The notes beneath the pieces are model-generated. The model did no database searches, had not been told where the DNA came from, and saw nothing but the letters and a program-made list of their open reading frames with translations. 32,537 bases of DNA from a virus: the UHGV virus genome UHGV-0139594; one strand, 5' to 3'. Each line of letters opens with the position of its first letter. The stretch's first letter is position 1. This document shows positions 155 to 32,537 of the stretch, piece by piece. Made by a program: the position numbers and the translations under genes.

Positions 155-168
155 TTAAAATCAATAAG

Positions 169-1332
169 TTACACATCATTAGTACCTTCCTTATTTTTTG
201 ACTGGGACAAATTTGGGACCGATGGGTTCAGGATCGAGTCTATTTGCCGTGCGTGTTCGGTAAGGTGATTAGGTGCAAGGTGAGCATATCGACGAACCAT
301 TTCGATAGACTCCCAGCCTCCCATTTCCTGTAACACTGACAACGGGACTCCGGCTTGAACCAGCCAACTTGCCCAGGTGTGTCTCAAGTCGTGAAATCTG
401 AAATCATCAATACCAGCCCGTCTCAGCGCCGCTTTCCAGGCTGTGTTTGCGTCATACCGCATCTTCCTTACTGTTGGCGCTTTCGTTCCGTCTGGTTTGG
501 TACAGCTTTCCTTGTACACAAATACCCAACGGTGATGATTCCCGATTTGTTTTTTCAATACGCGACATGCAGTATCATTCAGCGCAACGCCAATTGCGCG
601 GTTTGATTTACTCTCTTCCGGGTTTATCCATGCCACCCGGCGCTGCATATCTATTTGTTGCCATTCAAGGTTGATGATGTTCGAGCGTCTTAAGCCTGTT
701 GCCAGTGCAAATTCAACAACAGACTTTAATGGCTCCGGACATTCATCAATCAGCCTTTGTGCTTCATGGGGCTCCAGCCAGCGGATCCGTTTATTCTTTG
801 GTTGAGGCACTTTAATAATTGGTGCCTTATCCAGCATTTTCCATTCACGCTCTGCGGCTCTTAGTAGGGCCTTTATAAATGAAAGATGCGTAGCCTTCGT
901 TGCAACTGACGCTGGTTTTGGCGTGTATTCTGGAACAGGTTTCCCTTTTTTTCTGCATGCTTCTGCCCTGAGTTTCCAGTTTTCCTCATGACGCCGGTTC
1001 GTCATTTTCTGCATTGCTGAATAAATTTTTGATTCAGTAATGTCTCTTAGTTGCATTCCTGCGAAATGTTGAAGCCAGAATCCGATCCGGCTTTTGTCAT
1101 CGTCCAGCGATTTTTTATGTGCTTTCTCTTCAAGCCACCTGACACACGCTTCCTCGAACGTTATATCAGGTATTTCACCAAGTTTGCTGACCCGCCATGC
1201 TTCAGCCTTTAGCTTGTCATGGAGTTCTGTCGCCTGCCTTTTGTCCTTTGTTCCAAGAGACTGTTTAAATCTTTTACCGTTCGGCAATGTGAAACTGGCG
1301 TACCATATTTCACCTCTGCGGAAGAGTGACAT
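169..1332 (-). CDS. int: Tyrosine recombinase / phage integrase, P22 Int-like
   Basis: 387-aa ORF starting [14 protein letters not shown], with C-terminal catalytic region [15 protein letters not shown]...VRRYAHL (R-H-R-Y signature). Lies 15 bp from the tRNA 3' end and is transcribed toward it. Confidence 0.95.
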
Positions 1333-4080: not shown

Positions 4081-4119
4081 AGCCAAGGAGTGCAAGGATT
4101 ATCAAAAAAAGGAGGTTGT

Positions 4120-5010
4120 ATGGAAGACGCGCTTTACGCTTTTAATTACACACAGAACCGGGACAAGTTATTTGCTAACTTGATTAGCATCATTGATGGA
4201 ATCATTGCAGATGGAGTTGTCCGTGAAGAGGAGGTTCTTTACTTAGATACATGGTTACTTGAAGCAAAGCAGATTATCAATAATGGAGTTATAAAAAGTC
4301 TATCAGCACGGGTGTCGGATATTCTTGCGGATGGAATAATCACATCAGAAGAACGTGATGACCTTAAAAATAGCCTTCTCCAAATACAGAGGGAAATTCT
4401 TGATATCCCTGAAATTGATTTTTACTCCAAGGATGTAGATGTCCATTTACTTAATGGACTATGTAAAGGATTAATTGCTGATCGGAACTTAACTCAAGAA
4501 GAAATAAGATATCTTAATTGGTGGCTTGAGCAAAATGGAGCTTTGAAGAACAACTACCCAGGAAAAAAACTTTATGCACTTGTAAAGGAAATTCTTAAAG
4601 ATGGTGTTATTACTGAAGATGAGAGTTTAACTCTACATAAGGCATTAGTAGACTTCACAGGATGTGACTTGGAAAGTGGGGTGGTGGATGGTTTGGCGAC
4701 CAGGCTGCCTATTGATGTAGGGGCTTCGATAGAGTTAGAGGGTAAAACCTATTGTCTTACAGGCACTTTTGTTGCAGGAAAGAGAGCCGTAGTTGAAAAT
4801 TTGATTAAAAATGCTGGTGGGAACATCAGTAGTGGAATTACTCAAAAGTTGGATTTTTTAGTAATTGGGACGCTTTCCTCCCGTGATTGGAAATTCTCAA
4901 GTCACGGAAGGAAGATCGAAAAGGCTATATCTTATAGGGATGATAATGGTGCAAAACTTAAAATTATTTCTGAAGAAATGCTTTTCGATGCATTACCAAG
5001 TTCGCGATGA
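4120..5010 (+). CDS. Accessory protein with four tandem TerB-like (ADG...EE) helical repeats and a C-terminal BRCT domain
   Basis: GGAGG RBS 4 nt before ATG 4120. Repeats IADGVVREEEVLYLDTWLL, LADGIITSEERDDLKNSLL, IADRNLTQEEIRYLNWWLE, LKDGVITEDESLTLHKALV. C-terminus GKTYCLTGTF...GKRAVVENLIKNAGGNISSGITQKLDFLVIG resembles the LigA-type BRCT domain. Confidence 0.8.
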   Translation: MEDALYAFNYTQNRDKLFANLISIIDGIIADGVVREEEVLYLDTWLLEAKQIINNGVIKSLSARVSDILADGIITSEERDDLKNSLLQIQREILDIPEIDFYSKDVDVHLLNGLCKGLIADRNLTQEEIRYLNWWLEQNGALKNNYPGKKLYALVKEILKDGVITEDESLTLHKALVDFTGCDLESGVVDGLATRLPIDVGASIELEGKTYCLTGTFVAGKRAVVENLIKNAGGNISSGITQKLDFLVIGTLSSRDWKFSSHGRKIEKAISYRDDNGAKLKIISEEMLFDALPSSR

Positions 5011-6637: not shown

Positions 6638-6992
6638 ACAGTTTAACAACACACTACCGTCGCTCGCAACTGATTGCGCTTCCTGTACCGGGTGGAAAAG
6701 CGAAGGTGGAGTATTGCTATGCAGTTAATGTACCTGGTGACAGGGAAATTGTAACCCACAGCTTTGCTGAGTGGGCTGTGGGTGATTTCAACCGGCAGAA
6801 GGAGACAGTCCTTTGCGACAAGTTAACCGCTGGTTCAAAGATCACTACGGAGTGCCCGTCAGAGTCATTCGTTGGGAGCCGGAAACACAACGAGTTATCT
6901 ACCTCCGCGAAGGCTATGAGCATGAGTGCTTCAGCCCGCTCGAACAGTTTCGTCGTAAATTCAGGGAAATAGAGGTCGGTCATGAGCACTAA
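6634..6992 (+). pseudogene. Hypothetical protein with apparent frameshift (two frames needed for a protein-like product)
   Basis: Frame of ORF 6634..6972 is protein-like to about residue 59, then turns into a Ser-rich tail. The -1 frame from about 6786 to its stop at 6990..6992 reads [61 protein letters not shown]-run at about 6811..6815 is the likely shift site. Confidence 0.5.
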
Positions 6993-7923
6993 ATTAACCG
7001 GCTATGTATGGGATGGTTGCGCTGCATCAGGCATGAAATTATCCAGCGTGGCAATTATGGCCCGCCTGGCTGATTTCAGTAATGACGAAGGTGTGTGCTG
7101 GCCATCAATTGAAACTATTGCCCGTCAGATTGGCGCGGGGATGAGTACCGTCAGGACGGCTATCGCACGGCTGGAAGCAGAAGGCTGGTTAACGCGTAAG
7201 GCGCGTCGCCAGGGTAACCGCAATGCGTCGAATGTTTATCAGCTTAACGTTGCGAAGCTTCAGGCAGCGGCATTTTCTCAACTGTCAGATTCTGACCCGT
7301 CAAAATCTGACGCATCAAAATCTGACCCGTCAAAATTTGATGCGTCGAAATCTGGCAAAAAAGCGGGTTTTCACCCGTCAGAATCTGGCGGGGATCCGTC
7401 AGTAAAATCAAAACATGATCCGTCAGATAAAAAACCTTCTCGTCCGGACGCTTCGCAACCGGACACGCAGACGGCTGAACAGGAGTTTTTAACTCGCCAT
7501 CCTGATGCGGTTGTATTCAGCCCTAAAAAGCGCCAGTGGGGAACGCAGGATGATTTGACCTGCGCACAGTGGCTCTGGAAAAAAATCATCGCCCTGTACG
7601 AGCAGGCCGCCGAATGTGACGGCGAGGTGGTTCGTCCCAAAGAACCGAACTGGACAGCCTGGGCAAACGAAATTCGCCTGATGTGTGTGCAGGATGGTCG
7701 TACTCACAAACAAATCTGCGAGATGTACAGCCGCGTCAGCCGCGATCCGTTCTGGTGCCGTAACGTGCTCAGCCCGTCGAAGTTGCGGGAAAAATGGGAT
7801 GAGCTTTCCCTGCGCTTATCACCGTCCGTCAGCACGTACACCGAAAAACGCGAAGACCCGTACTTCAAATCCAGTTACGACAACGTGGACTACAGCCAGA
7901 TCCCGGCAGGATTCAGGGGGTGA
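6982..7923 (+). CDS. Replication initiator / replisome organizer (lambda O-like role) with N-terminal wHTH
   Basis: N-terminus MARLADFSNDEGVCWPSIETIARQIGAGMSTVRTAIARLEAEGWL is a typical phage replication-protein wHTH; the gene contains an internal iteron array. Confidence 0.8.
   Translation: MSTKLTGYVWDGCAASGMKLSSVAIMARLADFSNDEGVCWPSIETIARQIGAGMSTVRTAIARLEAEGWLTRKARRQGNRNASNVYQLNVAKLQAAAFSQLSDSDPSKSDASKSDPSKFDASKSGKKAGFHPSESGGDPSVKSKHDPSDKKPSRPDASQPDTQTAEQEFLTRHPDAVVFSPKKRQWGTQDDLTCAQWLWKKIIALYEQAAECDGEVVRPKEPNWTAWANEIRLMCVQDGRTHKQICEMYSRVSRDPFWCRNVLSPSKLREKWDELSLRLSPSVSTYTEKREDPYFKSSYDNVDYSQIPAGFRG
7283..7402. repeat. Iteron array (putative ori) inside the replication initiator gene
   Basis: Tandem 15-bp units ACCCGTCAAAATCTG / ACGCATCAAAATCTG / ACCCGTCAAAATTTG / ATGCGTCGAAATCTG / ACCCGTCAGAATCTG plus degenerate copies, followed by an A-rich stretch. 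Encodes the SDSDPSKSDASKSDPSK low-complexity linker. Confidence 0.7.
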
Positions 7924-12276: not shown

Positions 12277-12756
12277 CTAGAGCAGACCTATAGCGCCACC
12301 GGCAATAGCAGTAAGTAAAGGATGTTCTGCTAACTTTCTTAGCAGCCCCTTTGCTTCTTCTTTCTGCTGTGGCGTACCCTGAGAGCTATTTATTAAGTTA
12401 TTCAGCGTCTCGATGCTATTGGTAATCTCCTGACGGTTATGATCTCCAATCTGTACATTCCCTCCGTGAATGTTGATTTGCTGAGAAGAAATAGTTGGTT
12501 GTATCTTTTTGGGGCCAACCTTGAGTTGGAAGTGTGGGCCAAAACCGCCAATGCTAGTGTCGTAAAAATTAGCTTTATAAATTTCTTTATGTTCTTCCTT
12601 ACCGTTTGGAAGGAGTCGAACAACAGTATCCCCGTCATCGATGTCGGCCATTTGGTCGTTTACGATAATTGTATCACCTGCAAACTTGGCCTTATACGGG
12701 CCGCATCTGCTGCCATCACGTTTTAAGATGTAGGCATCGTCTTTAGCTGTAAACAT
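12277..12756 (-). CDS. Moron: hypothetical 159-aa protein between Q-like gene and holin
   Basis: Opposite-strand ORF in the Q-S intergenic hotspot, ending at the bidirectional terminator. C-terminal hydrophobic tail LLTAIAGGAIGLL. Confidence 0.6.
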   Translation of the reverse strand: MFTAKDDAYILKRDGSRCGPYKAKFAGDTIIVNDQMADIDDGDTVVRLLPNGKEEHKEIYKANFYDTSIGGFGPHFQLKVGPKKIQPTISSQQINIHGGNVQIGDHNRQEITNSIETLNNLINSSQGTPQQKEEAKGLLRKLAEHPLLTAIAGGAIGLL

Positions 12757-14369: not shown

Positions 14370-14996
14370 TCAGTTGTCAAATGAATATACGTTAAAGGTA
14401 TATGTCGACATAATTTCACCAAGTACCTCAATACATATACTTTTTTTATGAAAATTACTGGGAAATGAACTTAGCTCTTCAAGGTATTGCACATAAGTGC
14501 TGATATCACTTGCATCACGTTCAAGGAATTTCACTTGGCCAAAAGAAGGAGTATTAATCCTGGTTCTTTGCTGGATTATATGGATAAAATGTGTAGTTGG
14601 TGAAACTATTACTCTTGAAATATCGGAAATGATGTCTTCTTGAACTTGCCGATAAAGTAAATCCTTTGGGTAATGGTGTTTTATCTCGATGGTTGCAACA
14701 TTGCCATTATGTTCAGACGTTAATATCGACTGGTTATAAAGTGATATGTCAACAGCGCCGATACCGAGTTTTGGATGCTCACTTAAAGCAGTTAGTGTGC
14801 TGATTTGATTGAGTATAACAACTAACTCATCACGTATTTGTGTTTCATGTTTGCGATTGTAGAAGTAGCCATTCAGTTCATTTAACTTTTTATGCATCCT
14901 ATCGTGACTAATTGCTTCGATCAGTAAATCCTGAATCATACTTTTCTCTAGGTAATCCGAACGGTTGTAAGTGACAGTATTGTGCTGGCATGTCAT
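14370..14996 (-). CDS. Moron cassette gene B: hypothetical 208-aa protein with a possible PD-(D/E)xK-like motif
   Basis: AT-rich ORF on the opposite strand in the bor position. Segment GIGAVDISLY ... VATIEIKHH loosely fits D...(D/E)xK spacing; speculative. Confidence 0.55.
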   Translation of the reverse strand: MTCQHNTVTYNRSDYLEKSMIQDLLIEAISHDRMHKKLNELNGYFYNRKHETQIRDELVVILNQISTLTALSEHPKLGIGAVDISLYNQSILTSEHNGNVATIEIKHHYPKDLLYRQVQEDIISDISRVIVSPTTHFIHIIQQRTRINTPSFGQVKFLERDASDISTYVQYLEELSSFPSNFHKKSICIEVLGEIMSTYTFNVYSFDN

Positions 14997-15039: not shown

Positions 15040-15375
15040 TCATCGATAGAAAAACTTTACAGCCCACTCGTAAACAGCTTTGTAAATCGGTTCATGGTAA
15101 ATACTATCGATACTATTCAGATGTGCGATCATCGCCTCCACAGTTGTAGTGGTTGTTTCTAATATTTCGATTATTGCAGGGCGGTCATCATCTTCATCGA
15201 AGTATTCGAACAGCAGTACAGGTTTACCATGCCATTCAGCATCAGAGACTCTAAGGTTACAACTACCGCTCAACTCAAAGTGAATTTTGTAATTACCTTC
15301 TACAGAATGGCCTACGGGGAAAAAGTATAGGGTGTCATCTTTGTTCAAAAGCCATTCCCATTCATAACTATTCAT
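15040..15375 (-). CDS. Moron cassette gene A: hypothetical acidic 111-aa protein
   Basis: AT-rich ORF upstream of gene B on the same strand, 43-bp gap. AGGAG RBS before the second ATG (MNSYEWEWLL). Confidence 0.55.
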   Translation of the reverse strand: MNSYEWEWLLNKDDTLYFFPVGHSVEGNYKIHFELSGSCNLRVSDAEWHGKPVLLFEYFDEDDDRPAIIEILETTTTTVEAMIAHLNSIDSIYHEPIYKAVYEWAVKFFYR

Positions 15376-15525
15376 TTGTGAACTCCTGTTCATTGAGTTT
15401 CAACAACTATCAACTACATCCAGCGAAGCATAAAAGATCGTTTATGGCAAAACCGGAATGGAGTGCGATTCGATTCTGAGAAGGATGCCACGTATCGTAC
15501 GCGAACCATCCAAGAGGATTATGCA

Positions 15526-16496: not shown

Positions 16497-17344
16497 GCCG
16501 GAAATCTTACCCCAACGTAAATGCAGCCAATCAGTATGCCCGTCATGTCGTGCGCGGAAAGATTGTGGCCTGCCAGTTTGTGATTCAGGCCTGCCAGCGC
16601 CATCTTGATGACCTGATGGCGGAAAAAAGTAAGTCGTTTCGTTACCGCTTCGACAAGGACCTGGCTGAACGGGCCGCGAAATTTATTCAGCTGTTGCCGC
16701 ACACCAAGGGTGAGTGGGCATTCAAACGGATGCCCATCACGCTGGAGCCGTGGCAGCTATTTGTGATCTGCTGTGCGTTTGGCTGGGTCAATAAAGGCAC
16801 CCGGTTGCGCCGCTTCCGGGAGGTGTATACCGAAATCCCCCGTAAGAACGGCAAATCAGCAATCTCTGCCGGTGTTGCCCTGTATTGTTTTGCCTGTGAT
16901 AACGAGTTTGGCGCGGAAGTGTATTCCGGTGCCACGACAGAGAAACAGGCGTGGGAAGTCTTTCGCCCGGCGCGACTGATGTGTAAACGCACACCCATGC
17001 TGACGGAAGCGTTCGGGATTGAGGTTAACGCCTCAAACATGAACCGTCCGGAGGATGGCGCGCGGTTTGAACCGCTGATCGGTAACCCCGGTGATGGTTC
17101 ATCACCCCACTGTGCGGTGGTGGATGAATATCACGAGCACGCCACCGATGCGCTTTATACCACGATGCTTACCGGGATGGGGGCGCGACGTCAGCCACTG
17201 ATGTGGGCCATCACCACCGCCGGGTACAACATTGAGGGGCCGTGCTACGACAAGCGGCGGGAAGTTATCGAGATGCTCAACGGTTCGGTAACCCTGCGCA
17301 CATTATCGGTTATGGATCGGTGTTTGACTGTCGTTCTGAGCTGA
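16493..17344 (+). pseudogene. Terminase large subunit, truncated after the ATPase domain
   Basis: Walker B-like AVVDEYHEH and ITTAG motif present, but ORF is only 283 aa. Its last ~36 codons are an out-of-frame read of the prohead protease gene. No nuclease domain and no portal gene follow. Confidence 0.65.
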
Positions 17345-20942: not shown

Positions 20943-21113
20943 ATGTTTGTGAAACCTGTTAAAGGGCGGTCAGTGCCTGACCCTGCCCGCGGTGACCTTT
21001 TGCCCACCGAAGGGCGAAATGTTGATGAGAACAACTACTGGCTGCGCCGTGAAGCAGCGGGTGATATCCGGCGCGTGAATAAAAAGGTGAACACCGATGA
21101 CGATAAGCTTTAA
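20943..21113 (+). CDS. Small conserved protein preceding the tail sheath (DUF2635-like, 56 aa)
   Basis: MFVKPVKGRSVPDPARGDLLPTEGRNVDENNYWLRREAAGDIRRV; below the 60-aa track cutoff; overlaps the sheath start. Confidence 0.6.
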   Translation: MFVKPVKGRSVPDPARGDLLPTEGRNVDENNYWLRREAAGDIRRVNKKVNTDDDKL

Positions 21114-22344
21114 CACCATTCCGTCGAATACGCTGGTTCCGCTGTTTTATGCGGAAATGGATAACTCGGCGGCGAATACTGCACAGGACAGCGGGGCATC
21201 GTTGCTGATTGGTCACGCCAATAACGGTGCAGAGATTGTTGCCAACAGTCTGGTGCTGATGCCGTCGGCAGACTATGCACGCCAGATTTGTGGTGCGGGA
21301 AGTCAGCTGGCGCGTATGGTCGAGGCTTATCGCCAGACCGATCCGTTTGGCGAGCTGTATGTGATTGCCGTTCCGGAAGCCACAGGCGCGGCGGCAACGG
21401 TTACGCTGACGGTGACCGGAGCAGCAACCGAAACCGGCACGGTGAATGTTTATGTGGGACGTACCCGCGTGCAGGCACCGGTGACCAACGGCGATAACGT
21501 CACGACGATTGCCAGCAGTATCCAGGATGCCATCAATGCCGTTCCGGCCCTGCCGTTTACGGCCTCATCTTCGGCAGGCGTGGTCACGCTGACCGCGCGT
21601 CATAAGGGGCTTTGCGGGAATGAAATTCCTGTCAGCCTCAATTACTACGGCTTTGGTGGGGGCGAAGTGCTGCCAGCGGGCGTACAGATTGCCGTGGCGA
21701 CGGGGAGCGCCGGAACGGGCGCTCCGGTTCTCACCGGTGCGGTGGCTGCAATGGCGGATGAGCCGTTTGATTATATTGGCTTGCCGTTCAACGACACGGC
21801 CTCCGTTAACACGCTGGTGACCGAGATGAACGATACCAGCGGTCGCTGGAGCTATGCGCGTCAGCTGTATGGTCATGTGTATACGGCAAAGATCGGCACG
21901 CTGTCAGAACTGGTGACCGCAGGTGACCAGTTTAACCAGCAGCACATTACCCTGGCGGGATACGAAAAAGACACTCAGACGCCAGCCGACGAGCTGGCGG
22001 CAAGCCGTACCGCCCGCGCAGCGGTGTTTATTCGCAACGATCCGGCACGTCCCACGCAGACCGGTGAGCTGGTGGGTATGCTGCCTGCACCGAAGGGGAA
22101 ACGGTTCACGATGACCGAGCAACAGACCCTGCTGTCTCATGGCGTGGCAACGGCGTATGTCGAAAGTGGGGTAAACGCTCTACGTGGCATACACAACGAT
22201 TTACAAGAGCTAAACGAAAGGCTTTACCGTGGTTTTAGCCTGACCGTCGAGGAAGTCGAGATCACCTTGTCCGGCATATTCAGATTCAACTTTCAGGCCC
22301 AGCAGCGCGGTAATCAGATCCACTTCAACACGGTTTGCGTGTGA
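21097..22344 (+). CDS. Contractile tail sheath protein (Mu gpL-like), probably 3'-truncated
   Basis: MTISFNTIPSNTLVPLFYAEMDNS ... GSQLARM ... VTLTARHKGLCGNEIPVSLNYYG match Mu-like sheath signatures. Protein is 415 aa against an expected ~490, and the sheath-like sequence seems to stop near 22150. Confidence 0.7.
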   Translation: MTISFNTIPSNTLVPLFYAEMDNSAANTAQDSGASLLIGHANNGAEIVANSLVLMPSADYARQICGAGSQLARMVEAYRQTDPFGELYVIAVPEATGAAATVTLTVTGAATETGTVNVYVGRTRVQAPVTNGDNVTTIASSIQDAINAVPALPFTASSSAGVVTLTARHKGLCGNEIPVSLNYYGFGGGEVLPAGVQIAVATGSAGTGAPVLTGAVAAMADEPFDYIGLPFNDTASVNTLVTEMNDTSGRWSYARQLYGHVYTAKIGTLSELVTAGDQFNQQHITLAGYEKDTQTPADELAASRTARAAVFIRNDPARPTQTGELVGMLPAPKGKRFTMTEQQTLLSHGVATAYVESGVNALRGIHNDLQELNERLYRGFSLTVEEVEITLSGIFRFNFQAQQRGNQIHFNTVCV

Positions 22345-22716
22345 ACGGTAATGAGCCTCAGAGAAATCATTAACCGCTACCAGCATAGCATCAGAACGGT
22401 TTGGATATTGGCGGCTGTATTGTTCCAGGTCACGAGAAGTAACAGCGTTAATACTGCCGACGTGTTTCATCTGGAAAAGTTTGTTTGACCATTCCTGACG
22501 TTTAGAGGCGTTCCAGTCGCTTTGAGCGTAAGGCGAGGTTTCCCCAGCTACCTGCACAAACTGATCAATCAGGTCGGTAAGAAGAATGCTGTTTTCTGTA
22601 TGATATTGCACATCGAACAGATCGAGATTAGTAATCAGGGTATTAAGTGCATTCTCATAAGCAAAAGGAGTTACTACCGCAGTATTAACGCCAAAATATG
22701 TTGATAAATCATTCAT
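22210..22716 (-). CDS. Hypothetical protein (168 aa), last gene of a minus-strand operon
   Basis: ORF in a 3-gene minus-strand cluster; its 3' end overlaps the sheath ORF tail. No confident homology. Confidence 0.45.
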   Translation of the reverse strand: MNDLSTYFGVNTAVVTPFAYENALNTLITNLDLFDVQYHTENSILLTDLIDQFVQVAGETSPYAQSDWNASKRQEWSNKLFQMKHVGSINAVTSRDLEQYSRQYPNRSDAMLVAVNDFSEAHYRSHANRVEVDLITALLGLKVESEYAGQGDLDFLDGQAKTTVKPFV

Positions 22717-22730
22717 TATTATTTTCCTTG

Positions 22731-23114
22731 TTAAGTCGTAGGGATCGCAAGTTCTTCATAACTAGCAATTACAAAGCCGAGAGATTGCAGTTTTGCAATA
22801 ACACTTGCCTTTTCCATGCTGTTAAATTCAATCCCATCTTCAGCCAGAATAACGAAAGTAGGATGTGCAACCACTACGCTTTCCTGTCCTTCATAAGCCG
22901 GTTCAACTACTACGTGAGCAATATCAGATGCGGTTGTTGCTTTGGTGCCATCGGCTTTCAGCAAAGCCCCGACAATAAGATCGTCAGTGAGAGGTGAAGC
23001 CAGTTTGACGAGGCGATCTTGCAGCACCGGATCAGCAGCGTAAGCTACTACCTTACAGCGTGAACGGGAGTTATCCGCATTCACTACTTTTAATTTTCCA
23101 TATGGGTTAGCCAT
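22731..23114 (-). CDS. Hypothetical protein (127 aa)
   Basis: ORF in the same operon. Weak resemblance to head-decoration-type proteins (ADGTKATTASDIAHVVVE), not reliable. Confidence 0.45.
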   Translation of the reverse strand: MANPYGKLKVVNADNSRSRCKVVAYAADPVLQDRLVKLASPLTDDLIVGALLKADGTKATTASDIAHVVVEPAYEGQESVVVAHPTFVILAEDGIEFNSMEKASVIAKLQSLGFVIASYEELAIPTT

Positions 23115-23118
23115 AAGA

Positions 23119-23316
23119 TTATTTTCCTTTCAGTTGTTTAATTTTAGATTTAAGGGCATCAGCAAGACTAACCGCATCAGCCGATTTAAATAATTGAGCA
23201 GTGGTAGAACGAAGACTTTCGGGAGTAACTCCCAACAGTGCGGCAACCTTAATGAGGTTTTCATCACTAACAATCATCGTTTCCCCGTCTTTGCTGATAA
23301 TCATTTCTTGTTTCAT
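23119..23316 (-). CDS. Hypothetical small protein (65 aa)
   Basis: Start taken at the internal ATG (MKQEMIISKDG) with an AGGAA-type RBS; first gene of the cluster. Confidence 0.4.
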   Translation of the reverse strand: MKQEMIISKDGETMIVSDENLIKVAALLGVTPESLRSTTAQLFKSADAVSLADALKSKIKQLKGK

Positions 23317-24300
23317 AAATAACGTTCCTGTTAGTGCCAGACAAATAAAAAGCCCCAATGCCGTAAGAGGTTAATTCTGACCAGCAAAGGGGCTTTAACG
23401 TGCGGGCAATTACATAATTGATAAGTTAAACTATAAGAGGATTAAACATATCAGCAAATACACTTTTTAAATATACTTGATGATATGCTTAAAGGGTGAA
23501 TAGATACTCCTGAAAACATGCTCTTAGGAAAACATGCGGAATCAATCAGGAATATCTATTCGGGGCGCGGTGGCCAACCGCTATCTTTCATGGTGTGGAT
23601 GCACCAGTCAGATTTTAAGGAATCACTATTCCAATCTACTCACAGATTAAATTTTTAATAATGATTAACTACACCAACAGTAATCTACCGTTTCAGAAAA
23701 TCGTTTTTACAACCAAAGCTTATAGATCCGCATTCTATAAAACCCGTTTTGCTATCAATATTTCCAAAGTTTATTGCACCATTCTTAGCTAAACTCTCTC
23801 TGCTTGCGGCTAACGCTATGCAGATGATTGTTTTTGACAACAACTTAATAGATTGTTCTGTTACTAACTTCTGTCATTAAATAATAGTTTAATGATGTTA
23901 GTAAATAGTTATAAAATATAACTATCAGTGTAAGGCTCTTTAATATTTTCTGACAAAATAAGGAGCTTTAGGATAAGCATAGATGAAAAATAAGAGCGGG
24001 AAGGGCAAGGAGATAACACCTACCCGCTTTTATCAAAATTAAGCACAATGCCTAACAACATTCATCAACACAACGTAGAAACAATCAACAATCAAAGAGG
24101 GAGTTATGATTATTCTAAAACTTCTTGAGAGATGGAAGGTAATATTTGTTAGAGGTTAATGCCACTCAACCTTTGAGGCTATCACCTTCCATATGCAGGG
24201 ATTTATGACAGTAGAAGGATTAACACCAGTCAAAACCTTTTTATCTACCCCTAATATCATTATATAATGAAATCGTTATAAATGCAAATGATTTTCATTA

Positions 24301-24609
24301 TCATTTAGAGAAAATAGCACTTTTTGCTAAATCGTCTACTAATTGCTGAATCTCTTCACTTGCAGCCTTTAACGTGCTGGCGGTGTCTGTGATGGTTTGA
24401 GTGCACATCTTGGCATCGTCCTCAATTAGCTCTAAATCGCTCACCAGAGAGATAAAATCGTCAAGGCTTACATTCACCTTCATTAAGCTAATAACGCATT
24501 GAGAGAGCGTGTAATCGCATAAATCTGAATAGGCTTGATTTATTCTTGTTTGTAGTGAGATAGTCAGATCTAAAAGTTGTTCCATTGCATTGCTAATATC
24601 TTCTTCCAT
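24301..24609 (-). CDS. Hypothetical acidic protein (102 aa)
   Basis: AAGGAG RBS; start overlaps upstream stop (TAATG); AT-rich. Confidence 0.5.
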   Translation of the reverse strand: MEEDISNAMEQLLDLTISLQTRINQAYSDLCDYTLSQCVISLMKVNVSLDDFISLVSDLELIEDDAKMCTQTITDTASTLKAASEEIQQLVDDLAKSAIFSK

Positions 24610-24854
24610 TATGCGGCTTCTCCTTGTAATGCATCATTAATCATATTCAATACGATGTTAAAAGGTGTCTTGAGCGTCAGCACTTCATCACGATAACGCT
24701 CTAATGCTTCGTAGTCTTCTGTTTCTTTTGCCAGTCGGATTAACTCAGCATAGTTTTTTGCATCAGACAGGATCATCTGAAATAATTGTGTTTCTTGAAT
24801 ATAGCCAATCATTATTTTTCCTTTTTCGAATATTTTCATTGGGCGCTTATACAT
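24609..24854 (-). CDS. Hypothetical protein (81 aa or shorter)
   Basis: Coupled to downstream gene; alternative start at internal Met with AAAGGA RBS. Confidence 0.45.
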   Translation of the reverse strand: MYKRPMKIFEKGKIMIGYIQETQLFQMILSDAKNYAELIRLAKETEDYEALERYRDEVLTLKTPFNIVLNMINDALQGEAA

Positions 24855-24869
24855 ACACCCATCATTTTA

Positions 24870-25253
24870 TTAGTTAGAACGTTTGTTAGAAGCTAATGTA
24901 TCTTCTAAATGAGCCATCAGATCGACTTCCGATGCACCACCTACACAATTATTGAAAGCGTTAAATCCCAAAAAATGATGATAGGAGCTAAACCCTAAAA
25001 GTTGCCAACGCTTCAGAGTGCCATCAGAAATTATTGTTTGTTTTCTTGTTCTTGGGCGAAAGTAAACGCCTGGCATTGACTGGATTATTTCTAATTCTTT
25101 ATTACTTAATTCAGGGGATTCTATTTCAAGAATAAATATTATCTCTTCCCCTGGAATTTCATTATTGGTATGTGTCGGTGGACGTTGTCTTTTTGAATTG
25201 AAATTACTGTTTTTTTCAATACGTTTTAAGTTATTCTTTTTCTTTCTTCCCAT
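24870..25253 (-). CDS. Hypothetical protein with basic N-terminus (127 aa)
   Basis: AAGAGGG RBS; N-terminal Lys/Arg-rich segment MGRKKKNNLKRIEKN. Confidence 0.5.
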   Translation of the reverse strand: MGRKKKNNLKRIEKNSNFNSKRQRPPTHTNNEIPGEEIIFILEIESPELSNKELEIIQSMPGVYFRPRTRKQTIISDGTLKRWQLLGFSSYHHFLGFNAFNNCVGGASEVDLMAHLEDTLASNKRSN

Positions 25254-25627
25254 TTTCCCTCTTTTTATGTGGATTATAAAAACTTAATGCCATTGTTACG
25301 ATGAATATCGCCATAAATGCATTTGCCATATGTATTGCCCGATCTGTTGTTATTGATTGTTTGTGAGAAACAATTCAAAATCTTTGTTTAATTTCAAAAG
25401 ACGAAATGTAGTGCTGTTAATCCCTTCATAATCCAGCACACCGAACGATGTAAAATGATTTAACCAACAATTTCTGATAGTGCGCTGTAGCCGCCTAAAC
25501 TACAAAAGCTAACCACTGTCGGTGGTGAAAACTCTATTTCCAAAATAGCTTTTAAAATGTTGTATCCGCTTTCAGTTATTTCAATAGTTTTGTTTCCTAT
25601 AGTGATGTTATAAGTCATTTATTCTCC

Positions 25628-26221
25628 TTAGAAGGGTAGTGAATCATATATTGTGCTCTCACTTTTGAGATCAATTATCAAAGAGTCAAAATCATTTTCA
25701 CAAAGATAGATATTCTTTGAATCTAATGCTCGTTTTACAAAATCTTCTGTTTCTTCGTGCGGTGGTTTCTTCTTATCAAGGGAAAGAAGCCAAGTAAAAA
25801 TTTCGGGCCGCTCAGGGAACTCTGGCTCTTGTGTTTCTTCTTCAACGATGATTTCGGAAACATTCAATATTTCATTAGATTCGTCTTCTTTCTCAGAAGG
25901 ATCAGGTAGTGATGATTCTCCTTTTGGAATATCAAGCACTCGATAAAGGTTAGAGCTTCCTGGTCGTGCATCTTTTATAATTAATCCCATTTCGAGCAAT
26001 TTCTTAACCCTTTCTTCTGCTGCTCTTGGTGTTATGCCAAAAACATCGCCTATCTTAGCGTAAGAGGGAAATGCACGATCAAACCCTCTCAGATAGCAGT
26101 AAAGGTTTTTAGCACTATCTGTAAATTTATGCCCGTTTACTTGGCTTATTTTTAGAATCCACATAGGAACTTTTACAAATTGTTCTTCATTAATCATTAA
26201 AAATCTCCTTGATGTAATCAC
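25628..26221 (-). CDS. Rep-like winged-helix protein (putative replication initiator of an iteron replicon)
   Basis: N-terminal wHTH (NLYCYLRGF...SYAKIGDVFGITPRAAEERVKKLLEMGLI) resembling replication-initiator DNA-binding domains; acidic C-terminal half; iteron array about 1.2 kb upstream. Confidence 0.55.
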   Translation of the reverse strand: MITSRRFLMINEEQFVKVPMWILKISQVNGHKFTDSAKNLYCYLRGFDRAFPSYAKIGDVFGITPRAAEERVKKLLEMGLIIKDARPGSSNLYRVLDIPKGESSLPDPSEKEDESNEILNVSEIIVEEETQEPEFPERPEIFTWLLSLDKKKPPHEETEDFVKRALDSKNIYLCENDFDSLIIDLKSESTIYDSLPF

Positions 26222-26250
26222 GCTCTACGGCGCTACTATGGTGATAAAAA

Positions 26251-26421
26251 TCACTTGCTTTTGTTTGAGAGTGTTTCAGCCTCTCTTTTCAACATATCAA
26301 GAATGTAATCTGTAACAGTGATACGTTTACTTCTGGCTTCTTTAAACAACACCTGAAATACTTCATCAGGAATATGAAAGCAAGTGCGTGGTTGTCTTTT
26401 CTTTTCTGTAGTTTCGCTCAT
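26251..26421 (-). CDS. Small ribbon-helix-helix-like protein (56 aa)
   Basis: MSETTEKKRQPRTCFHIPDEVFQVLFKEARSKRITVTDYILDMLKREAETLSNKSK; GGAGAAGGAGAA RBS; below track cutoff. Confidence 0.5.
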   Translation of the reverse strand: MSETTEKKRQPRTCFHIPDEVFQVLFKEARSKRITVTDYILDMLKREAETLSNKSK

Positions 26422-26442
26422 AGTTTTCTCCTTCTCCTGTTA

Positions 26443-26625
26443 TTATTCTTTCTCTGCTTCTGCCTTACGCAGTTCATCAATAATTTTTAGTGCATCGTCA
26501 AAGCATTTTTCACGCTCTGGATAACCTCTACTCCTTGCCATATTACGATTCATTACTATTTGATGTCGTGTTAGCTCACCTTTTTTAAATGCCTCTGCGA
26601 CGTGTTTCGGTGTAAACCATTTCAT
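26443..26625 (-). CDS. Hypothetical small basic protein (60 aa)
   Basis: ORF immediately upstream of the RHH gene on the same strand. Confidence 0.45.
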   Translation of the reverse strand: MKWFTPKHVAEAFKKGELTRHQIVMNRNMARSRGYPEREKCFDDALKIIDELRKAEAEKE

Positions 26626-27454
26626 AAAAACTCCTTATTCAGTTAAAAGAAAAAAAACACCTTGCAAGCCTGACGGCTTCAAAGTGCATTGATTTTGATT
26701 ATTTAGAGAAGAATGTTTTTCTGTCCCTCTAATACCTATTATTACATATAAAGAAACATTTGTCAATACCCTTTTCGCAAAAATACGATCTTTTTCAGCA
26801 GCTTAAAATTTTTCTTAGCAATTCGTGCTCTTATGAGTACTCCTATTCTTCCTTATTCTCTAAAACGCTCTCTGACGAGGTTTTGATAAATACAATACAT
26901 TCCCTTATGTAGAGGCTGTTTAGCTCGCCAGAGGCTTATTTAAGCGGTAGAAACTTATTTAACCTTCAACTACTAAAACCATTCTTTCTTTTTTGTTTGT
27001 TGTTGGTTGTTGTCTGTGTCTATGTGCTAACATCGCTAATGCGTAGCACACAAGGTTATTGCACTCGTCAGAGTATTGCACAATAGATTTTCTCTTAAAT
27101 AGATTGATGATCGTTAGATTGGCGTAAGCCTCATCAATGGAACTATTGAAGCGCACAGCGCATAGACACTAACAACCATTCGCTTACGCTCAGGTTATTG
27201 CACATAGTAGATTACATATTCGTTGTGAGCGGCATTAGCGAACATAGATCTACTAACTAACATCAACAAACAAAAACTATGTGTTATGACAAGCAGTCTA
27301 ACGACTAACACTCTAACTTGTGCAAGGTTCTGGCGAATGCCAATAGATTAAGGGATAGTCGTTAGACTCCCCTAACGGGTATCCCTATAATTATTCTTTA
27401 AAGATAAAGGAATTTATAAAAGATAATTTAATTGTAGTTTGATAGTTGATCTAA

Positions 27455-27600
27455 TAGGTAACAAAATTCTGTAGGGGTGGCTAACAGTTTTCTGTGGGGG
27501 TGTCTAACATAATTCTGTTAGGGTTGGGGTAACAGTTTTCTGTTAGGGTGCATATTTCTTTAAAAGTTAAGGATAACAGAATTCTGTGGGGGTAGCTCAC
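27455..27600. repeat. Iteron array: five copies of a ~23-bp unit (AACAnnnTTCTGTnGGGGTnG)
   Basis: AACAAAATTCTGTAGGGGTGG, AACAGTTTTCTGTGGGGGTG, AACATAATTCTGTTAGGGTTGG, AACAGTTTTCTGTTAGGGTG, AACAGAATTCTGTGGGGGTAG at roughly 23-bp phasing. Confidence 0.7.
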
Positions 27601-28709
27601 AGTGACCTACCGTTACATCCATTTATCACATAACATCTGTGCAATGATCTTCTAAAAGTGTTTCTTGCTACCAAAATTAAACATCTAAAACAGGCTTAAA
27701 TTCAATGTAATTGATGATTAATCCCTGTGTAATTCCTACGTAAAAATTCAATGAAAAGTAGCTTAAAAGTGCAATTCTTACTTTCTTCACTTTTACATCA
27801 CTTTCGCAAAGCCTTGTGTAATGCGGCTACAGCGCACTATCAGAAATTGTTGATTAAAAATCAATCTATTATTTGTCGAACAAGTTTCTTTCACGTGTTG
27901 AAAATTTATGTTTAAATTTGCTTTCAATCTTTAATGTGCAATCACTATCAACATAAAAATAAAAAACCTTCTATTATATTTCATAGCATACAAAAGTCAA
28001 TAGAAGCCCTCTCGTGCTCCTACGTAAAAAATCCACCACTTTTCCCCTGATACATCAACTCAAGGCGTTCCATGTGTTCCTTAGTGCATATTACGATTAT
28101 TATGTTAAATGGATTTTGGCCCATATTTTGACCTGCACCCGCATAAACACTGGTTTCATCGCTTACAGCCCTTGTGAGACGTGGTGCTGTTTCTAGCATC
28201 TGATCCGACATAAAACCGATCATTCTCGTGTTTAGTGAAAGTTTAGTGAGAGACATTACAGAAAGGCTTTCTGTGTAATGATTTAATAGGTAAAAACGAT
28301 GTTGATTACGCAAGAAAATTCCTTGCTGATATTTGGGGATTCTGGATTTTCCAGATCGGGGGGCGGTGAAAATCGCGTTAAGCACTTCTCGCAATCTAGC
28401 CATAAGGGAAGGGATAAAGGTATTTAGATGTATTTATAGCTATTTATGGCTATTTATTTTTTATTTACCTTAATTTAAAAATAGCCTTATAAATCAATAA
28501 GATACAGGACTATCTGTTTATATTTTAATCAATTAAATCAAGTTTAATACCCTTAAACCACCTGAAAATAACCTTAAATACCCCAATAATTAATTTTAAC
28601 GATTCCTGTGCTCTCTCCTACTTTGCAAAAAGGCAAAAAAAGCCCATAGAGGCACAAAAATATTAAAACCAATAACTCAATAATGCCTCTACAAGAGCTT
28701 CTCTAACTG

Positions 28710-29261
28710 TTATTTTTGATTGAGCTTACATCGATCCCATTGTTCTGTCGTTCTTGTGATACGATCGCTTATTGCAAAATTTAATAGCCAAGAATCATAA
28801 GCATAAACCTTGCTTTTATCATCTGCCATCATAAACTTGCCGTTAGCATTCAGTTTTGGCGATATCAAATATGTTCCATTTAATCTGTTAGCCTTGAAGC
28901 TATCTGCATATAAAGTTACTTGTGCGTATCCCTGAACACGTAATGCCCCTAAACGTCCGTTTTCGATTGATGCAATAGAGTATTGGCAAAGATAATTTTT
29001 GGCAGCAGGAGTCGTTTTCACTCCTTCAGTTTTTCGTGAATTATTTGATTGCGAGCTTCGAATAGAGGATGAAGGATAAGAGTATGAATGATTTTTATAA
29101 GATGAAGGGGCATAAGAGCCAATCCGGCACGTCTTACCAACAGCTATACACGAGTTACCACAAGGTATTCCTTTTTTGCAGTTTTTAGCAACTGCGGTAG
29201 AAGTTCCCCCTACAAACAACGTTGTAAAAATCATCATCCTCACAAATGCAGACCTGCGCAT
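28710..29261 (-). CDS. Secreted Cys-rich protein of unknown function (183 aa)
   Basis: N-terminal signal peptide (MMIFTTLFVGGTSTAVA), Cys cluster CKKGIPCGNSCIAVGKTC, Ser-rich linker, ~100-aa C-terminal domain; AT-rich. Confidence 0.55.
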   Translation of the reverse strand: MRRSAFVRMMIFTTLFVGGTSTAVAKNCKKGIPCGNSCIAVGKTCRIGSYAPSSYKNHSYSYPSSSIRSSQSNNSRKTEGVKTTPAAKNYLCQYSIASIENGRLGALRVQGYAQVTLYADSFKANRLNGTYLISPKLNANGKFMMADDKSKVYAYDSWLLNFAISDRITRTTEQWDRCKLNQK

Positions 29262-29655
29262 ATAACCTCCCTTTTTAGATTATTCTTATGCTATACACTT
29301 GCTTAAAAAAATAAAAGTGCCCTCTAACCTTTATCGTTCTCCATCACAATTTGAGAAGTAAGAGCAGCAACCTCAAGCGATGATCACGTTTGCGCCGATT
29401 TCAGAGAAAAAGACAGTAACTGAACTCACTATGAAGGCTAAACGTATCTTTACACTTGATGAAAACGTTCAAAAAACAACCTAACCCCAAAATTCAACAA
29501 ATAACAACATATTGTTTTTAAAAGAAAATTAAATCTACATCAAATATTGGTTGACGTAGATTGAGGTGAATAGTAGACTATTAGGGTAAATTGCCATTCT
29601 TGCAACATCATTTAATGCATGTTCTAATCCTCCTATCCCAAAACCGGAGGAAGTT

Positions 29656-29814
29656 ATGCATTTACTTTCAAAACATCTTCACACTATTCACTTTCTCGTT
29701 ATTGATGTATTCATTGTGGCTATTAGTTACCGCATTTGCATCGCTTCCAGTGAAGAGATGGACGCTGTTGCAATTATTGCTCAAGCAATGGCGATGTTAA
29801 CTAAACGACTTTAA
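29656..29814 (+). CDS. Hypothetical small hydrophobic protein (52 aa)
   Basis: GGAGG RBS 5 nt before ATG; converges on a hairpin shared with the next small gene. Confidence 0.35.
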   Translation: MHLLSKHLHTIHFLVIDVFIVAISYRICIASSEEMDAVAIIAQAMAMLTKRL

Positions 29815-29880
29815 TAATTTCACTATCAGGCGCATAAACACATCTTTGATCGCTGGATGTGTTATGCGCCTACTGGTGAT

Positions 29881-30033
29881 TCAATCCTTAAGCCATTTCA
29901 ACTCACTAAGGAGTTTTCTTTCTTCGTTCTCTCTCTGTTTACGCTCTAGCCAGGCTTTTCCTTCTGGCGTAGGCAGGAACTTACGAGCGTGAATCTTGCG
30001 GTTATTACGTTTGATAGCTGCAATGTTTTTCAT
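29881..30033 (-). CDS. Hypothetical small basic protein (50 aa)
   Basis: AGAGG RBS; MKNIAAIKRNNRKIHARKFLPTPEGKAWLERKQRENEERKLLSELKWLKD. Confidence 0.35.
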   Translation of the reverse strand: MKNIAAIKRNNRKIHARKFLPTPEGKAWLERKQRENEERKLLSELKWLKD

Positions 30034-30639
30034 CGTGTGCCTCTGTATTCATATGAAAATTAACAAGTTACATACTACACAGGGAGACTACGCATAAAAC
30101 ACAATACAAGTAAAGATACATTTTCAAGACAATAGGAGCCATAAAGCGCCTTTGATGGTTATACCAAAAAATAAGCGCCGTAGGCGTATCCACTAAAAAG
30201 GGCTTTTTCACAAAAGCTATGAAGTCTTAGCAGTTCTTCTCTTATCAGGCACCCGTTGTACTCCGGTGGACGAAACCGTGCTAGAGCTTGATTCTTTCCC
30301 GATCAAGTTAGGTTTTGAAGAGGTGGGCTTTAATCCACTATTGCACTTAAAACTCTTCCCATCATTTAGCCTGTTTATCCTCTGCAACGTCTCACGACGT
30401 GTAGCATCATTGGACACCGCGCCAGGTGTGGAACATCTTGCTAAGAGTTTTGGTAGAAGGTTTAGAGACGGTGGCACGTCTTCCAGCTTCAAAGGAACTT
30501 GTTACGAGGTTGAGCCTGGGAACTACTCGCCCATACGTGTTAAACTACCAAAAGCCCATAACAACGTATAGGCGTTTGTAAGTGATAACAGAAGATACAA
30601 TTTCTTAGAGAAGTTAAGCTAAGTTATTGATTTTCTTGA

Positions 30640-30685
30640 TGGTGCCGATAATAGGAGTCGAACCTACGACCTTCGCATTACGAAT
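30640..30685 (-). repeat. Inverted 46-bp copy of the thrW 3' end (anticodon loop to CCA): att core remnant
   Basis: TGGTGCCGATAATAGGAGTCGAACCTACGACCTTCGCATTACGAAT is the exact reverse complement of tRNA positions 31..76 (window 109..154). Confidence 0.85.
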
Positions 30686-30889
30686 TATAAGAATCCGCTT
30701 CTAATTCAAAGCATTACCCCATCAACACTGCGCTCACACGTCCCGCCACATCAAAACATGTAAAGCCTTGCAAGCCATTGTGAGGCCTTATGTGTCTCAG
30801 TTTTGTCCCACTACGACCTGCACAGAAAATAAGAAAATAGCGGTGATATCAAACAGTACAGAAGTCTTTTTTCTTTCAAATGGAGAAAC

Positions 30890-31168
30890 TGATTAACCCG
30901 TTTAATTGTACTCCTCATGGGCAATCAGCAGTCCTCAGAGTAATGGAATGGCAGAAAGGTTCGTGAAAACGATGAAGGAAGACTACATCGCGTTCATGCC
31001 GAAACCGAATGTAAGAACGGCATTGCATAATCTTGCAGTGGCGATCGAACATTACAATGGAAACCATCCGCACAGTGCGTTGGGTTATCGCTCTCTGCGA
31101 GAATATCGACGTCAGCGGGTAACGTTAACTTAAGATACACCCCCTGTCTGGAAATAAGGGGGCAAGAA
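30890..31168 (+). mobile_element. IS2-like (IS3 family) remnant: 3' end of transposase OrfB plus terminal repeat
   Basis: [59 protein letters not shown] resembles the IS2 OrfB C-terminus; downstream TGTCTGGAAATAAGGGGGCAA resembles the IS2 right end. No upstream transposase sequence. Confidence 0.6.
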
Positions 31169-31174
31169 CAATGA

Positions 31175-31927
31175 TCAGATTCCCTGGTGAGTAAGAATTT
31201 TACTTTCTGAACTCCTCTGAGAGTATTGACTTGGAGAAATACCAAAATAACGTCTAAATACATAAGTAAAGTATGAGACACTGGCATAACCACAGACCTT
31301 AGCTACTTTACTAATAGGATAACAACGAGTGCTGAGTAAATATTCAGCCATTTGCATCCTCTCATCAAGTATGATCTTACTGAATGATACCCCCTCTTCT
31401 TTCAATTTCCTCTTTAGTAAACTTTCGCTGAGATATAATCTTGATGATATATCCTTAAGACGCCATGGTGCAGATAAATCCGTATGAATAATCGTTTTAA
31501 CTTTAGCCCCTGTGCTTTTCAAACATCCAAACAGAAATACTCCAAATTGTTTTTCAGAAGAAAATGCAGAGAGACATGTAAAAGCAATAGACTCATCAAA
31601 AATTTCTATGTATTCAGCACAGTGATTAGCCCAACTAATTAATCCTTTAATTAAACTGAAGTCAGCAAAGTTTATTTTTAAATAAGATGGATATTCCCTA
31701 CAATCAGAAATATCCCTTAAGTTATTAGCTTTCAAATAGCGACTAATAAACTCAGCGCCAAAATCCGCCACTATCACTCTTTCAGGATACGTCAGGAAAA
31801 AATCTCTAGAGCTAGAGTCGACAAGTACAGATGAACCTCTCTCCAGAAACACAATCTCTTTTCCTAAATAAACATCAAAGGACTCCAAAATCAATATAAC
31901 TGAACATGTAGTTGCCATATCATCCAC
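31175..31927 (-). CDS. AraC-family transcriptional regulator, AppY/Rns-like
   Basis: C-terminal double HTH (WRLKDISSRLYLSESLLKRKLKEEGVSFSKIILDERMQMAEYLL...VAKVCGYASVSYFTYVFRRYFGISPSQY); AT-rich gene with AT-rich upstream region. Confidence 0.8.
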   Translation of the reverse strand: MDDMATTCSVILILESFDVYLGKEIVFLERGSSVLVDSSSRDFFLTYPERVIVADFGAEFISRYLKANNLRDISDCREYPSYLKINFADFSLIKGLISWANHCAEYIEIFDESIAFTCLSAFSSEKQFGVFLFGCLKSTGAKVKTIIHTDLSAPWRLKDISSRLYLSESLLKRKLKEEGVSFSKIILDERMQMAEYLLSTRCYPISKVAKVCGYASVSYFTYVFRRYFGISPSQYSQRSSESKILTHQGI

Positions 31928-32410
31928 CCAATTTAACTGAAACTAGGATGAAGTATATGCATATAAAGTTCACTTTGCCAAACTTCAGTATAAAAAACCA
32001 CATAAAAAATAGGGTGTGATAAAAAATACCGTAACAATAAAGCAAAGGATTATAAATTCCGTTACAGTTACAAATGATACTCAAGAAACAATTCCTTAGG
32101 AAAAACTTATTTACAGCCAATAAGTAAGACACTTATATGATATCAAGTTTTCATAAAACATAACTAGGCTAAATAGCTTCGCCTAATACCGCTACACTTT
32201 TGCCAGCCCATGTGTGCCTCCGGGTATTGACCCCTTCTCTACGCAACTTCAGTTCCCACCACCAACTTTGCGGCAGCTTTGTAGGATCAATGTCTAAAAG
32301 AATAATGGTGACCGATAAGAAAACGACTGAATAACTGCAGATTTTCGCTCGAAATCTTCCTGTCAGATCCATAGCGAATCAAGTGCTGAATGTCACAGTA
32401 TCGAACAGAA

Positions 32411-32537
32411 GGTAATGACTCCAACTTATTGATAGTGTTTTATGTTCAGATAATGCCCGATGACTTTGTCATGCAGCTCCACCGATTTTGAGAACGACAG
32501 CGACTTCCGTCCCAGCCGTGCCAGGTGCTGCCTCAGA
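32411..32537 (-). mobile_element. IS1, partial (terminal inverted repeat and insB 3' end), cut by window edge
   Basis: GGTAATGACTCCAACTTATTGATAGTGTTTTATGTTCAGATAATGCCCGATGACTTTGTCATGCAGCTCCACCGATTTTGAGAACGACAGCGACTTCCGTCCCAGCC matches the IS1 end as I recall it. Confidence 0.85.

Follow-up and report, generated by a model that had tools for sequence, protein, structure and literature searches.

An inverted 46-nt copy of the thrW 3' end, the probable attR core of an SfI/P22-type prophage in a rearranged compound prophage region

Phages SfI, SfII, SfV, SfX, and P22 share one attachment system: all of them integrate in thrW next to proA, and the core of SfI attP, attL, and attR (ATTCGTAATGCGAAGGTCGTAGGTTCGACTCCTATTATCGGCACCA) is identical in the other four (PMC3636060). 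Elements can also be stacked behind this tRNA gene, with 46-nt copies of the tRNA between them, as in O157:H7 Sakai with Sp1 and Sp2 (PMC8190617, PMC2669165) and, alike, in K-12 with CP4-6. The 46-nt repeats are direct at the Sp1/Sp2 boundary of Sakai and at both ends of CP4-6 in K-12. Tandem lysogeny is documented also for Sp10 beside Rac, for which attR of the resident prophage was used as attB (PMC2669165).

Here we describe a thrW locus on a DNA stretch of 32,537 nt (the window), which is a whole metaSPAdes contig (ena:ERZ1744290, NODE_413_length_32537_cov_10.7; ~10x coverage). It resembles the SfI/SfII/SfV/SfX/P22 system in the att core, in a P arm with 95-96% identity, in a homologous P' arm, and in an integrase 99% identical to that of SfI (384/387 residues), as well as in its site beside proA and its set of e14/SfV-like myovirus genes. 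Unlike in that system, the putative attR of the window is inverted with respect to attL and is followed on its B' side by another integrative element, not by the chromosome. Furthermore, the position beside attP that is taken by gtrABC in SfI is occupied in the window by a transposase remnant (rve') and an AraC-family regulator gene. The right end of Sakai Sp1 (pinE, GIY-YIG gene, AraC, ISEc48', 46-mer) is 89-99% identical to window 30638-32410, whereas all tRNA copies of Sakai and K-12 are direct and neither of their distal elements (the P4-like Sp2, the CP4-6 IntF module) is related to the AT-rich element found here. Our main reading, to which we assign a probability of about 0.8, is that the inverted copy is the attR core of an SfI/SfV/P22-type prophage in thrW and that it was inverted by one microhomology-mediated rearrangement.

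The inverted repeat and the att sites

The single tRNA gene detected in the window with ARAGORN was that for tRNA-Thr(CGU), i.e., thrW (79-154, + strand). A repeat search of the window revealed inverted arms at 109-158 and 30636-30685 (50 nt, 98% identity), separated by 30,477 nt, which agrees with the ~30.5 kb given in an earlier, sequence-only reading of this DNA. That reading took 30640-30685 for a perfect 46-nt reverse complement of the thrW 3' end, and inspection of both regions confirmed this: the inner 46 nt (109-154 vs. 30640-30685) were exact at every position upon realignment. The copied span corresponds to tRNA nt 31-76; it starts just 5' of the anticodon (34-36) and ends with CCA. 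A search with a 25-mer from the thrW 3' end, allowing up to three mismatches, returned thrW and 30640-30685 as the only two att-core sites in the window, with no third copy, and gave no match in 100 shuffles. By our estimate, the chance of an exact inverted 46-nt match in 32.5 kb is ~1e-19. The 46-nt copy is thus real and beyond chance.

Comparison of the repeat with the published SfI core gave an exact string match over 46 nt. The suggestion, in the sequence-only reading, that P22-type integrases use this span as att core proved correct, as it equals the core of SfI, SfII, SfV, SfX, and P22 (PMC3636060). In an alignment in tRNA-sense orientation, the inverted copy shared the ~125 nt lying 5' of the core (P arm) with both SfI attP and attR of E. 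coli D1, and the sequence 3' of the core, which runs into int (P' arm), was common to the thrW copy and SfI attP. In an independent search of a phage database, window 30620-30810 matched the attP-int region of SfI and SfIV with 95-96% identity. Since the core, P arm, and cargo are found at the copy, and the P' arm with an SfI-like integrase gene at thrW, these comparisons identify the thrW site as the putative attL (B-O-P') and the inverted copy as the putative P-core half of attR, both of one prophage of SfI type. The coordinates of all features are compiled in Table 1.

Table 1. Positions of the att sites, elements, genes, and junctions in the window
Feature	Coordinates	Strand	Basis
thrW, tRNA-Thr(CGU), intact	79-154	+	ARAGORN; adjoins proA in ECCHD184, D1, Sakai, K-12
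att core inside thrW, putative core of attL (B-O-P')	109-154	+	equals published SfI/P22 core and reverse complement of 30640-30685
P' arm of putative attL, overlapping int 3' end	155-300	+	alignment to SfI attP 3' of core
Left 22 kb of e14/SfV-like myovirus prophage (early genes, lysis, terS, terL', head genes, sheath'); defective	155-22173	+	
Tyrosine integrase, intact, 387 aa	169-1332	-	Pfam Phage_integrase, E = 3e-48
Excisionase-like gene, 116 aa	1209-1559	-	Pfam HTH_17; position as xis in SfI
9-bp overlap at 2.36-kb internal deletion	17286-17294	.	blastn vs. strain 7784, tblastn, Pfam
Tail-sheath gene, cut after codon 359/498	21097-22173	+	Pfam Phage_sheath domains
GGTA microhomology at sheath/integrase-gene junction; inversion-type breakpoint	22170-22173	.	
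57-bp piece of the AT-rich element's integrase gene, codons 319-337, sense on +	22170-22226	+	100% to 401651 L004 14046-13990
TA overlap at 3.84-kb deletion inside AT-rich element (= L004 10150-13989)	22225-22226	.	
Left ~8.4 kb of 13-kb AT-rich thrW-specific integrative element, inverted vs. thrW	22225-30639	-	
46-nt att core copy, putative core of prophage attR; its last 19 nt, putative core of the AT-rich element's attL	30640-30685	-	
P arm of putative attR	30686-30810	-	95-96% to SfI/SfIV attP region; aligned with SfI attP and D1 attR
IS3-family transposase remnant (rve_3), phage b-region cargo	30948-31133	+	Pfam rve_3
AraC-family regulator, phage cargo beside attP	31175-31918	-	Pfam HTH_AraC/HTH_18; corresponds to Sakai ECs_0287
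End of IS1 copy; contig stops here	32409-32537	.	

The copy shows the identity of core, the P arm on the anticodon side, the cognate integrase, and the partner attL at an intact thrW that an attR half should have. It departs from a regular attR in that it is inverted relative to attL, the copies of D1, Sakai, and K-12 being direct. Furthermore, on the CCA side the AT-rich element begins with its left end where the native chromosomal B' flank would be expected, which is also the case in strains BA92 and 401651. The native B' sequence (toward yagP') is present in D1 and after the 19-nt tRNA copy of the AT-rich element. The inverted state of attR would then be due to a secondary rearrangement at 22170-22226.

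Canonical arrangement of the two elements behind thrW

In the complete genome of D1, thrW and the 46-nt copy lie on the same strand and bound a full prophage. The gene order is proA, thrW, int, xis, early genes, lysis, terminase, portal, capsid, sheath, tail, and pinE, followed by a right end composed of IS1, an intervening stretch, a second IS1, AraC, rve', the 46-nt copy, yagP', and pao. In BA92 the order is tail fibers, fin', cargo, 46-nt copy, AT-rich element, integrase, 19-nt copy, and yagP'. Comparison with the thrW loci of related strains thus gives a direct copy in D1, Sakai, and K-12 vs. an inverted one in the window. Separately, we observed that the stretch between the two IS1 of D1 (L001 10993-12151) carries ysgD-corA, annotated as ordinary non-phage genes inside the prophage right end, and looks like an IS1-mediated translocated chromosomal fragment. 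In 401651 (NZ_CM129040, record origin; L004/L005), an ISAs1 joins the aspV T6SS/RHS island to the AraC-rve'-46-mer block, and proBA-thrW is not at the expected place, which reflects either another large rearrangement or a scaffolding issue.

Colinearity of the window with the thrW prophages of ECCHD184, 7784, and D1 extends over positions 1-22173, where it ends at sheath codon 359 of 498. Portal, tail-tube, and tape-measure genes were not found in the window by tblastn. Compared with the prophage of strain 7784, a 2.36-kb deletion has taken away terL after aa 266 (the nuclease half), portal together with a small ORF, and the initial codons of the prohead protease gene. Through this deletion, the prophage is already defective independently of the break in the sheath gene. 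As side observations on the prophage body, the replication-initiator-like gene at 6982-7923 (HTH_36/DnaD_N) contains at 7270-7392 six overlapping copies of a repeat with a 15-bp period (TCAAAATCTGACCCG-like), which resembles a lambdoid ori with iterons within the O gene. Accessory ORFs of low G+C content are located at 4090-5010, 12277-12756, 14370-14996, and 15040-15393; one encodes a BRCT-domain protein beside the XRE repressor, the other three have no Pfam match, and they could be morons or defense genes.

On the right-hand side of the copy, rve' and AraC match the lambdoid phages ev099, mEp332, and PhiR70_1 at 98.6-99%. In these free phages the rve'-AraC module lies between the tail fibers and attP/int (in ev099: tail fibers, AraC, transposase remnant, int, xis), i.e., in the slot beside attP in which SfI carries gtrABC. 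In Sakai, prophage Sp1 closes with this module and, next to it, a 46-nt copy in direct orientation; the remnant at the right end of Sp1 is annotated as 'ISEc48 partial'. The proposal of the sequence-only reading that the AraC/IS side is the former prophage end is borne out by this cargo, which is found between the tail fibers and int in ev099 and at the right end in D1 and Sakai Sp1. The insertion point of the IS1 copy at the end of the window is identical in D1 and many other genomes.

The left-hand side of the copy had been supposed to be former chromosomal or island DNA, and it turned out to be an island, namely a 13-kb integrative element specific for thrW. Window 22225-30639 has ~35-40% G+C and matches a block of BA92 and other strains with 99.7% identity. 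Used as an 8.4-kb query, it was covered to at least 80% in 83 complete E. coli genomes. In BA92/401651, the full element measures ~13 kb (L004 2190-15160, L009 14931-28417) and has the 46-nt copy at one end. At its other end are located a tyrosine integrase gene (DUF6538, SAM-like, and Phage_integrase domains), a 19-nt tRNA copy (ACTCCTATTATCGGCACCA), and the native flank with yagP'-paoD. The core of the AT-rich element is thus 19 nt only, corresponding to the last 19 nt of the 46-nt span. In other genomes the orientation of the element is direct throughout, whether it adjoins a complete thrW, as it does in several of them, or follows the 46-nt copy. The region hence has the make-up of a tandem array of integrative elements at a tRNA gene, with two elements that have integrases of their own and with partial tRNA copies between them.

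The element encodes an O-like replication initiator (25628-26197, PHROG) and gives weak PHROG matches to major head, tape-measure, and tail-fiber/endolysin families; judged from this gene content, it may be an uncharacterized small prophage or a phage satellite. Its assignment to a Sakai Sp2-like element was rejected, as Sp2 is an unrelated P4-like element. Likewise, a K-12 CP4-6-like identity was rejected, with IntF only 24% identical over 152 aa and CP4-6 sharing no DNA with 22.2-30.6 kb. The ORF at 30266-30571 was considered as an integrase remnant beside the copy and gave no Pfam match.

Several further observations were made within the AT-rich element. A pair of 36-nt inverted repeats (25459-25494 and 27823-27858; 97%) surrounds 2.3 kb with the O-like initiator gene, and four copies of a direct repeat of 20-31 nt (TAACAGnnTTCTGTnGGGGT-like) are present at 27456-27601; the direct repeats and the inverted pair are candidate origin iterons. 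At 27892-29374 the cargo has been swapped: 401651 carries a serine recombinase gene at that place, and the window unrelated ORFs of 183 aa and 127 aa, the former matching only PHROGs of unknown function. The assemblies L007 and L008, made from other read sets, both end at the position equivalent to 23868/23869, a shared break that suggests a strain-level branch in those samples.

The junction at 22170-22226 and its possible origins

At this place, the sheath gene breaks off at codon 359 and the sequence continues, via GGTA, with the integrase gene of the AT-rich element from codon 319 on. From 22225 onward, the window matches with 100% identity a position 3.84 kb deeper in the AT-rich element, and then runs through the left end of the element, the 46-mer, the P arm, rve', AraC, and IS1. 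The orientation of the ~10 kb from 22174 to 32537 is opposite to the canonical one relative to thrW; since everything up to the contig end is flipped, attR is inverted as well. That an inverted copy implies a later rearrangement had been argued from the sequence alone, and the inversion-type junction at 22170-22226 is in line with this argument. The inversion of an attR-containing segment, put forward in the same reading as one option, gains support from the flipped block and the direct copies of complete genomes. We refine it in one point: the breakpoint lies not at an att site or an IS but in the sheath and integrase genes, at a microhomology of 4 bp.

No IS, att sequence, or inverted repeat was found at the 22.17-kb junction, which by its sequence appears to be an illegitimate, microhomology-type join. 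Prophage decay through microhomology-mediated illegitimate recombination is well known in E. coli. The window fits this pattern with three junctions that have overlaps of 2-9 bp, yet differs in that one of the three is an inversion-type join, not a deletion. IS1-mediated inversion at 22.17 kb was considered and rejected, as there is no IS sequence there. An inversion by a serine invertase (Pin/Fin/YagL-type) was rejected too: the window lacks the recombinase gene of 401651, and no inverted repeat lies at the junction.

The history that we propose starts with an SfI-type phage that would have integrated into thrW and left an attR scar with the P arm and rve'-AraC on the anticodon side. The AT-rich 13-kb element would also have targeted the thrW 3' end via its 19-nt core and become stacked on the CCA side, so that the two elements behind thrW were presumably brought together by successive integration. 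Either order of integration is conceivable: the AT-rich element may have come first at thrW, or the prophage attR may have been used as its attB. The tandem lysogeny of Sp10 and Rac (PMC2669165) is alike in that it accounts for a partial tRNA copy between two elements, and unlike in that, at thrW, the AT-rich element may equally have arrived first. The ancestral order would have been proA, thrW/attL, int, prophage, tail genes, IS1, AraC, rve', attR, AT-rich element with its integrase, 19-nt copy, and yagP', with all tRNA-derived repeats direct. A later microhomology event would have joined sheath codon 359 to codon 319 of the element's integrase gene and flipped the DNA between them, with a 3.8-kb deletion 57 bp beyond the join; attR would finally have come to face attL.

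On a circular chromosome this history needs a second, polarity-restoring junction, which should lie beyond IS1. In the simplest model, a reciprocal inversion of ~26-30 kb, integrase codons 1-319 would be followed by sheath codon 360 onward, beside yagP'. The predicted DNA is ...GAACGTGCTGACGGTA joined to CTGCGC..., or in allele form ...ACAGAACGTGCTGACGGTA joined to CT(G/A)CGCATTCAGCGTGATG..., and the predicted product would be out of frame and end in ...ERADGT(A/T)HSA before the stop. None of ten exact-sequence look-ups matched this product, which is a weak negative since the alleles were guessed, and a homology search for the reciprocal junction returned only partial integrases at contig ends. 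A scan of JGI metagenome DNA gave no match to the predicted junction, but the observed junction was equally absent from that collection. The inversion was presumably simple and reciprocal; an event more complex than one inversion is possible.

The corresponding alternative, which we regard as unlikely, is a non-reciprocal or multi-step rearrangement. In its first form, an inverted extra block of IS1, AraC, attR, and element was placed in the sheath gene and the canonical copy persists beside it; in the second, the other breakpoint was elsewhere, e.g., at IS1, and the tail genes were lost. The missing reciprocal product speaks for such a course, as do the distance of only 57 bp between two junctions, suggestive of a complex event, the end of the contig in IS1, and the proneness of the region to rearrangement in other strains, e.g., at the ISAs1 junction of 401651. 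Against it, a duplicated 10-kb block should, as we infer, branch the assembly graph at the junction, whereas the contig runs through; moreover, the look-ups for the reciprocal product rested on guessed exact alleles.

That the junction might be an artefact, with a short-read assembler having misjoined two E. coli strains or loci whose true orientation is direct, is suggested by the nature of the window as a whole metaSPAdes contig at ~10x coverage. Its left end is 37 nt short of the proA stop codon and its right end 129 nt into IS1, both typical break points of short-read metagenome assembly. In addition, the junction was found in 0 of 5,426 complete E. coli genomes. However, 22170-22226 is the sole non-canonical adjacency of the window, and its overlaps of only 4 bp and 2 bp, by our inference far below typical assembler k-mers, make a repeat-induced misjoin of the de Bruijn graph implausible; the adjacency at the 46-mer is natural, as it occurs also in BA92 and 401651. 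The fusion ORF (21097-22344) is present on five contigs, and the three that were fetched, namely the window itself (ERZ1744290), a contig of a second ENA assembly (ERZ1744294), and a Logan contig of run SRR1818227, are 100% identical across the junction. Because of this identity in three separately deposited assemblies, whose samples may be related, the junction is unlikely to be a chimera and is treated here as real DNA; we consider the artefact very improbable.

Inversion by Int/Xis between the att sites, which would be compatible with the intact Int, the Xis-like gene, and the seemingly intact arms, is extremely improbable as the origin of the present arrangement: integration yields direct repeats, on which lambda-type Int excises rather than inverts, both sites have their parental flanks (B-O-P' at thrW, P-O at the copy), and the new adjacency falls within two coding genes, at a distance of 8.4 kb from the copy and of 22 kb from thrW. 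The other option of the sequence-only reading, a second element that integrated in the opposite direction and brought or created its own inverted att copy, has hardly any likelihood, for the 13-kb AT-rich element does abut the copy but its own core is the last 19 nt only, the 46-nt span, like the P arm and the cargo, is that of the SfI-type phage, element and copy are direct vs. thrW in every complete genome examined, and the direction of integration is set by core polarity.

Possible flipping and the fate of the compound prophage

Lambda-type Int acting on inverted att sites inverts the intervening DNA, both in vitro and in vivo. The window has the geometry of such an invertible substrate, with inverted attL and attR flanking the segment and with int and an xis-like gene nearby. 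These genes and the two att arms are all intact, so that the attL/attR pair could act as an Int/Xis-driven switch. Unlike in the lambda-type reaction, the arrangement in the window would have arisen otherwise, and flipping there is only conceivable: only parental flanks were found at both cores, and the breakpoint lies in the sheath and integrase genes. Our literature search on inverted att sites gave only papers on serine integrases. A natural switch that flips the intervening 30.5 kb seems quite improbable. If flipping were true, it would restore the adjacency of thrW to the AT-rich element, create a chromosomal attP beside rve'-AraC, and reorient the early and lysis genes of the prophage; the expected junctions would have TCAAGAAAATCAATAACTTAGC after thrW and TTAAAATCAATAAGTTACACATC after the P arm and core. 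If Int/Xis still recombine the inverted sites, the locus would be a large natural invertible segment.

The rearrangement presumably destroyed both the sheath gene and the integrase gene of the AT-rich element. The prophage would be immobile, being devoid of portal and of the terL nuclease half, with a truncated sheath gene and split from its tail genes, and the AT-rich element would be immobile through the loss of its integrase. Since the att sites are no longer direct or have been separated, neither element would be able to excise, and the region can be regarded as a locked, decaying compound prophage.

Both the att core and this type of compound thrW prophage region are known, and the unusual orientation, which we ascribe to a lineage-specific rearrangement, reflects ordinary genome decay, not a new system. 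The case calls for caution, as an inverted tRNA fragment near a tRNA-borne prophage can mimic a new recombination feature, and programs that look for direct repeats when calling prophage boundaries will place the limits of such compound regions wrongly. At the same time, it documents how two integrative elements become locked in place.
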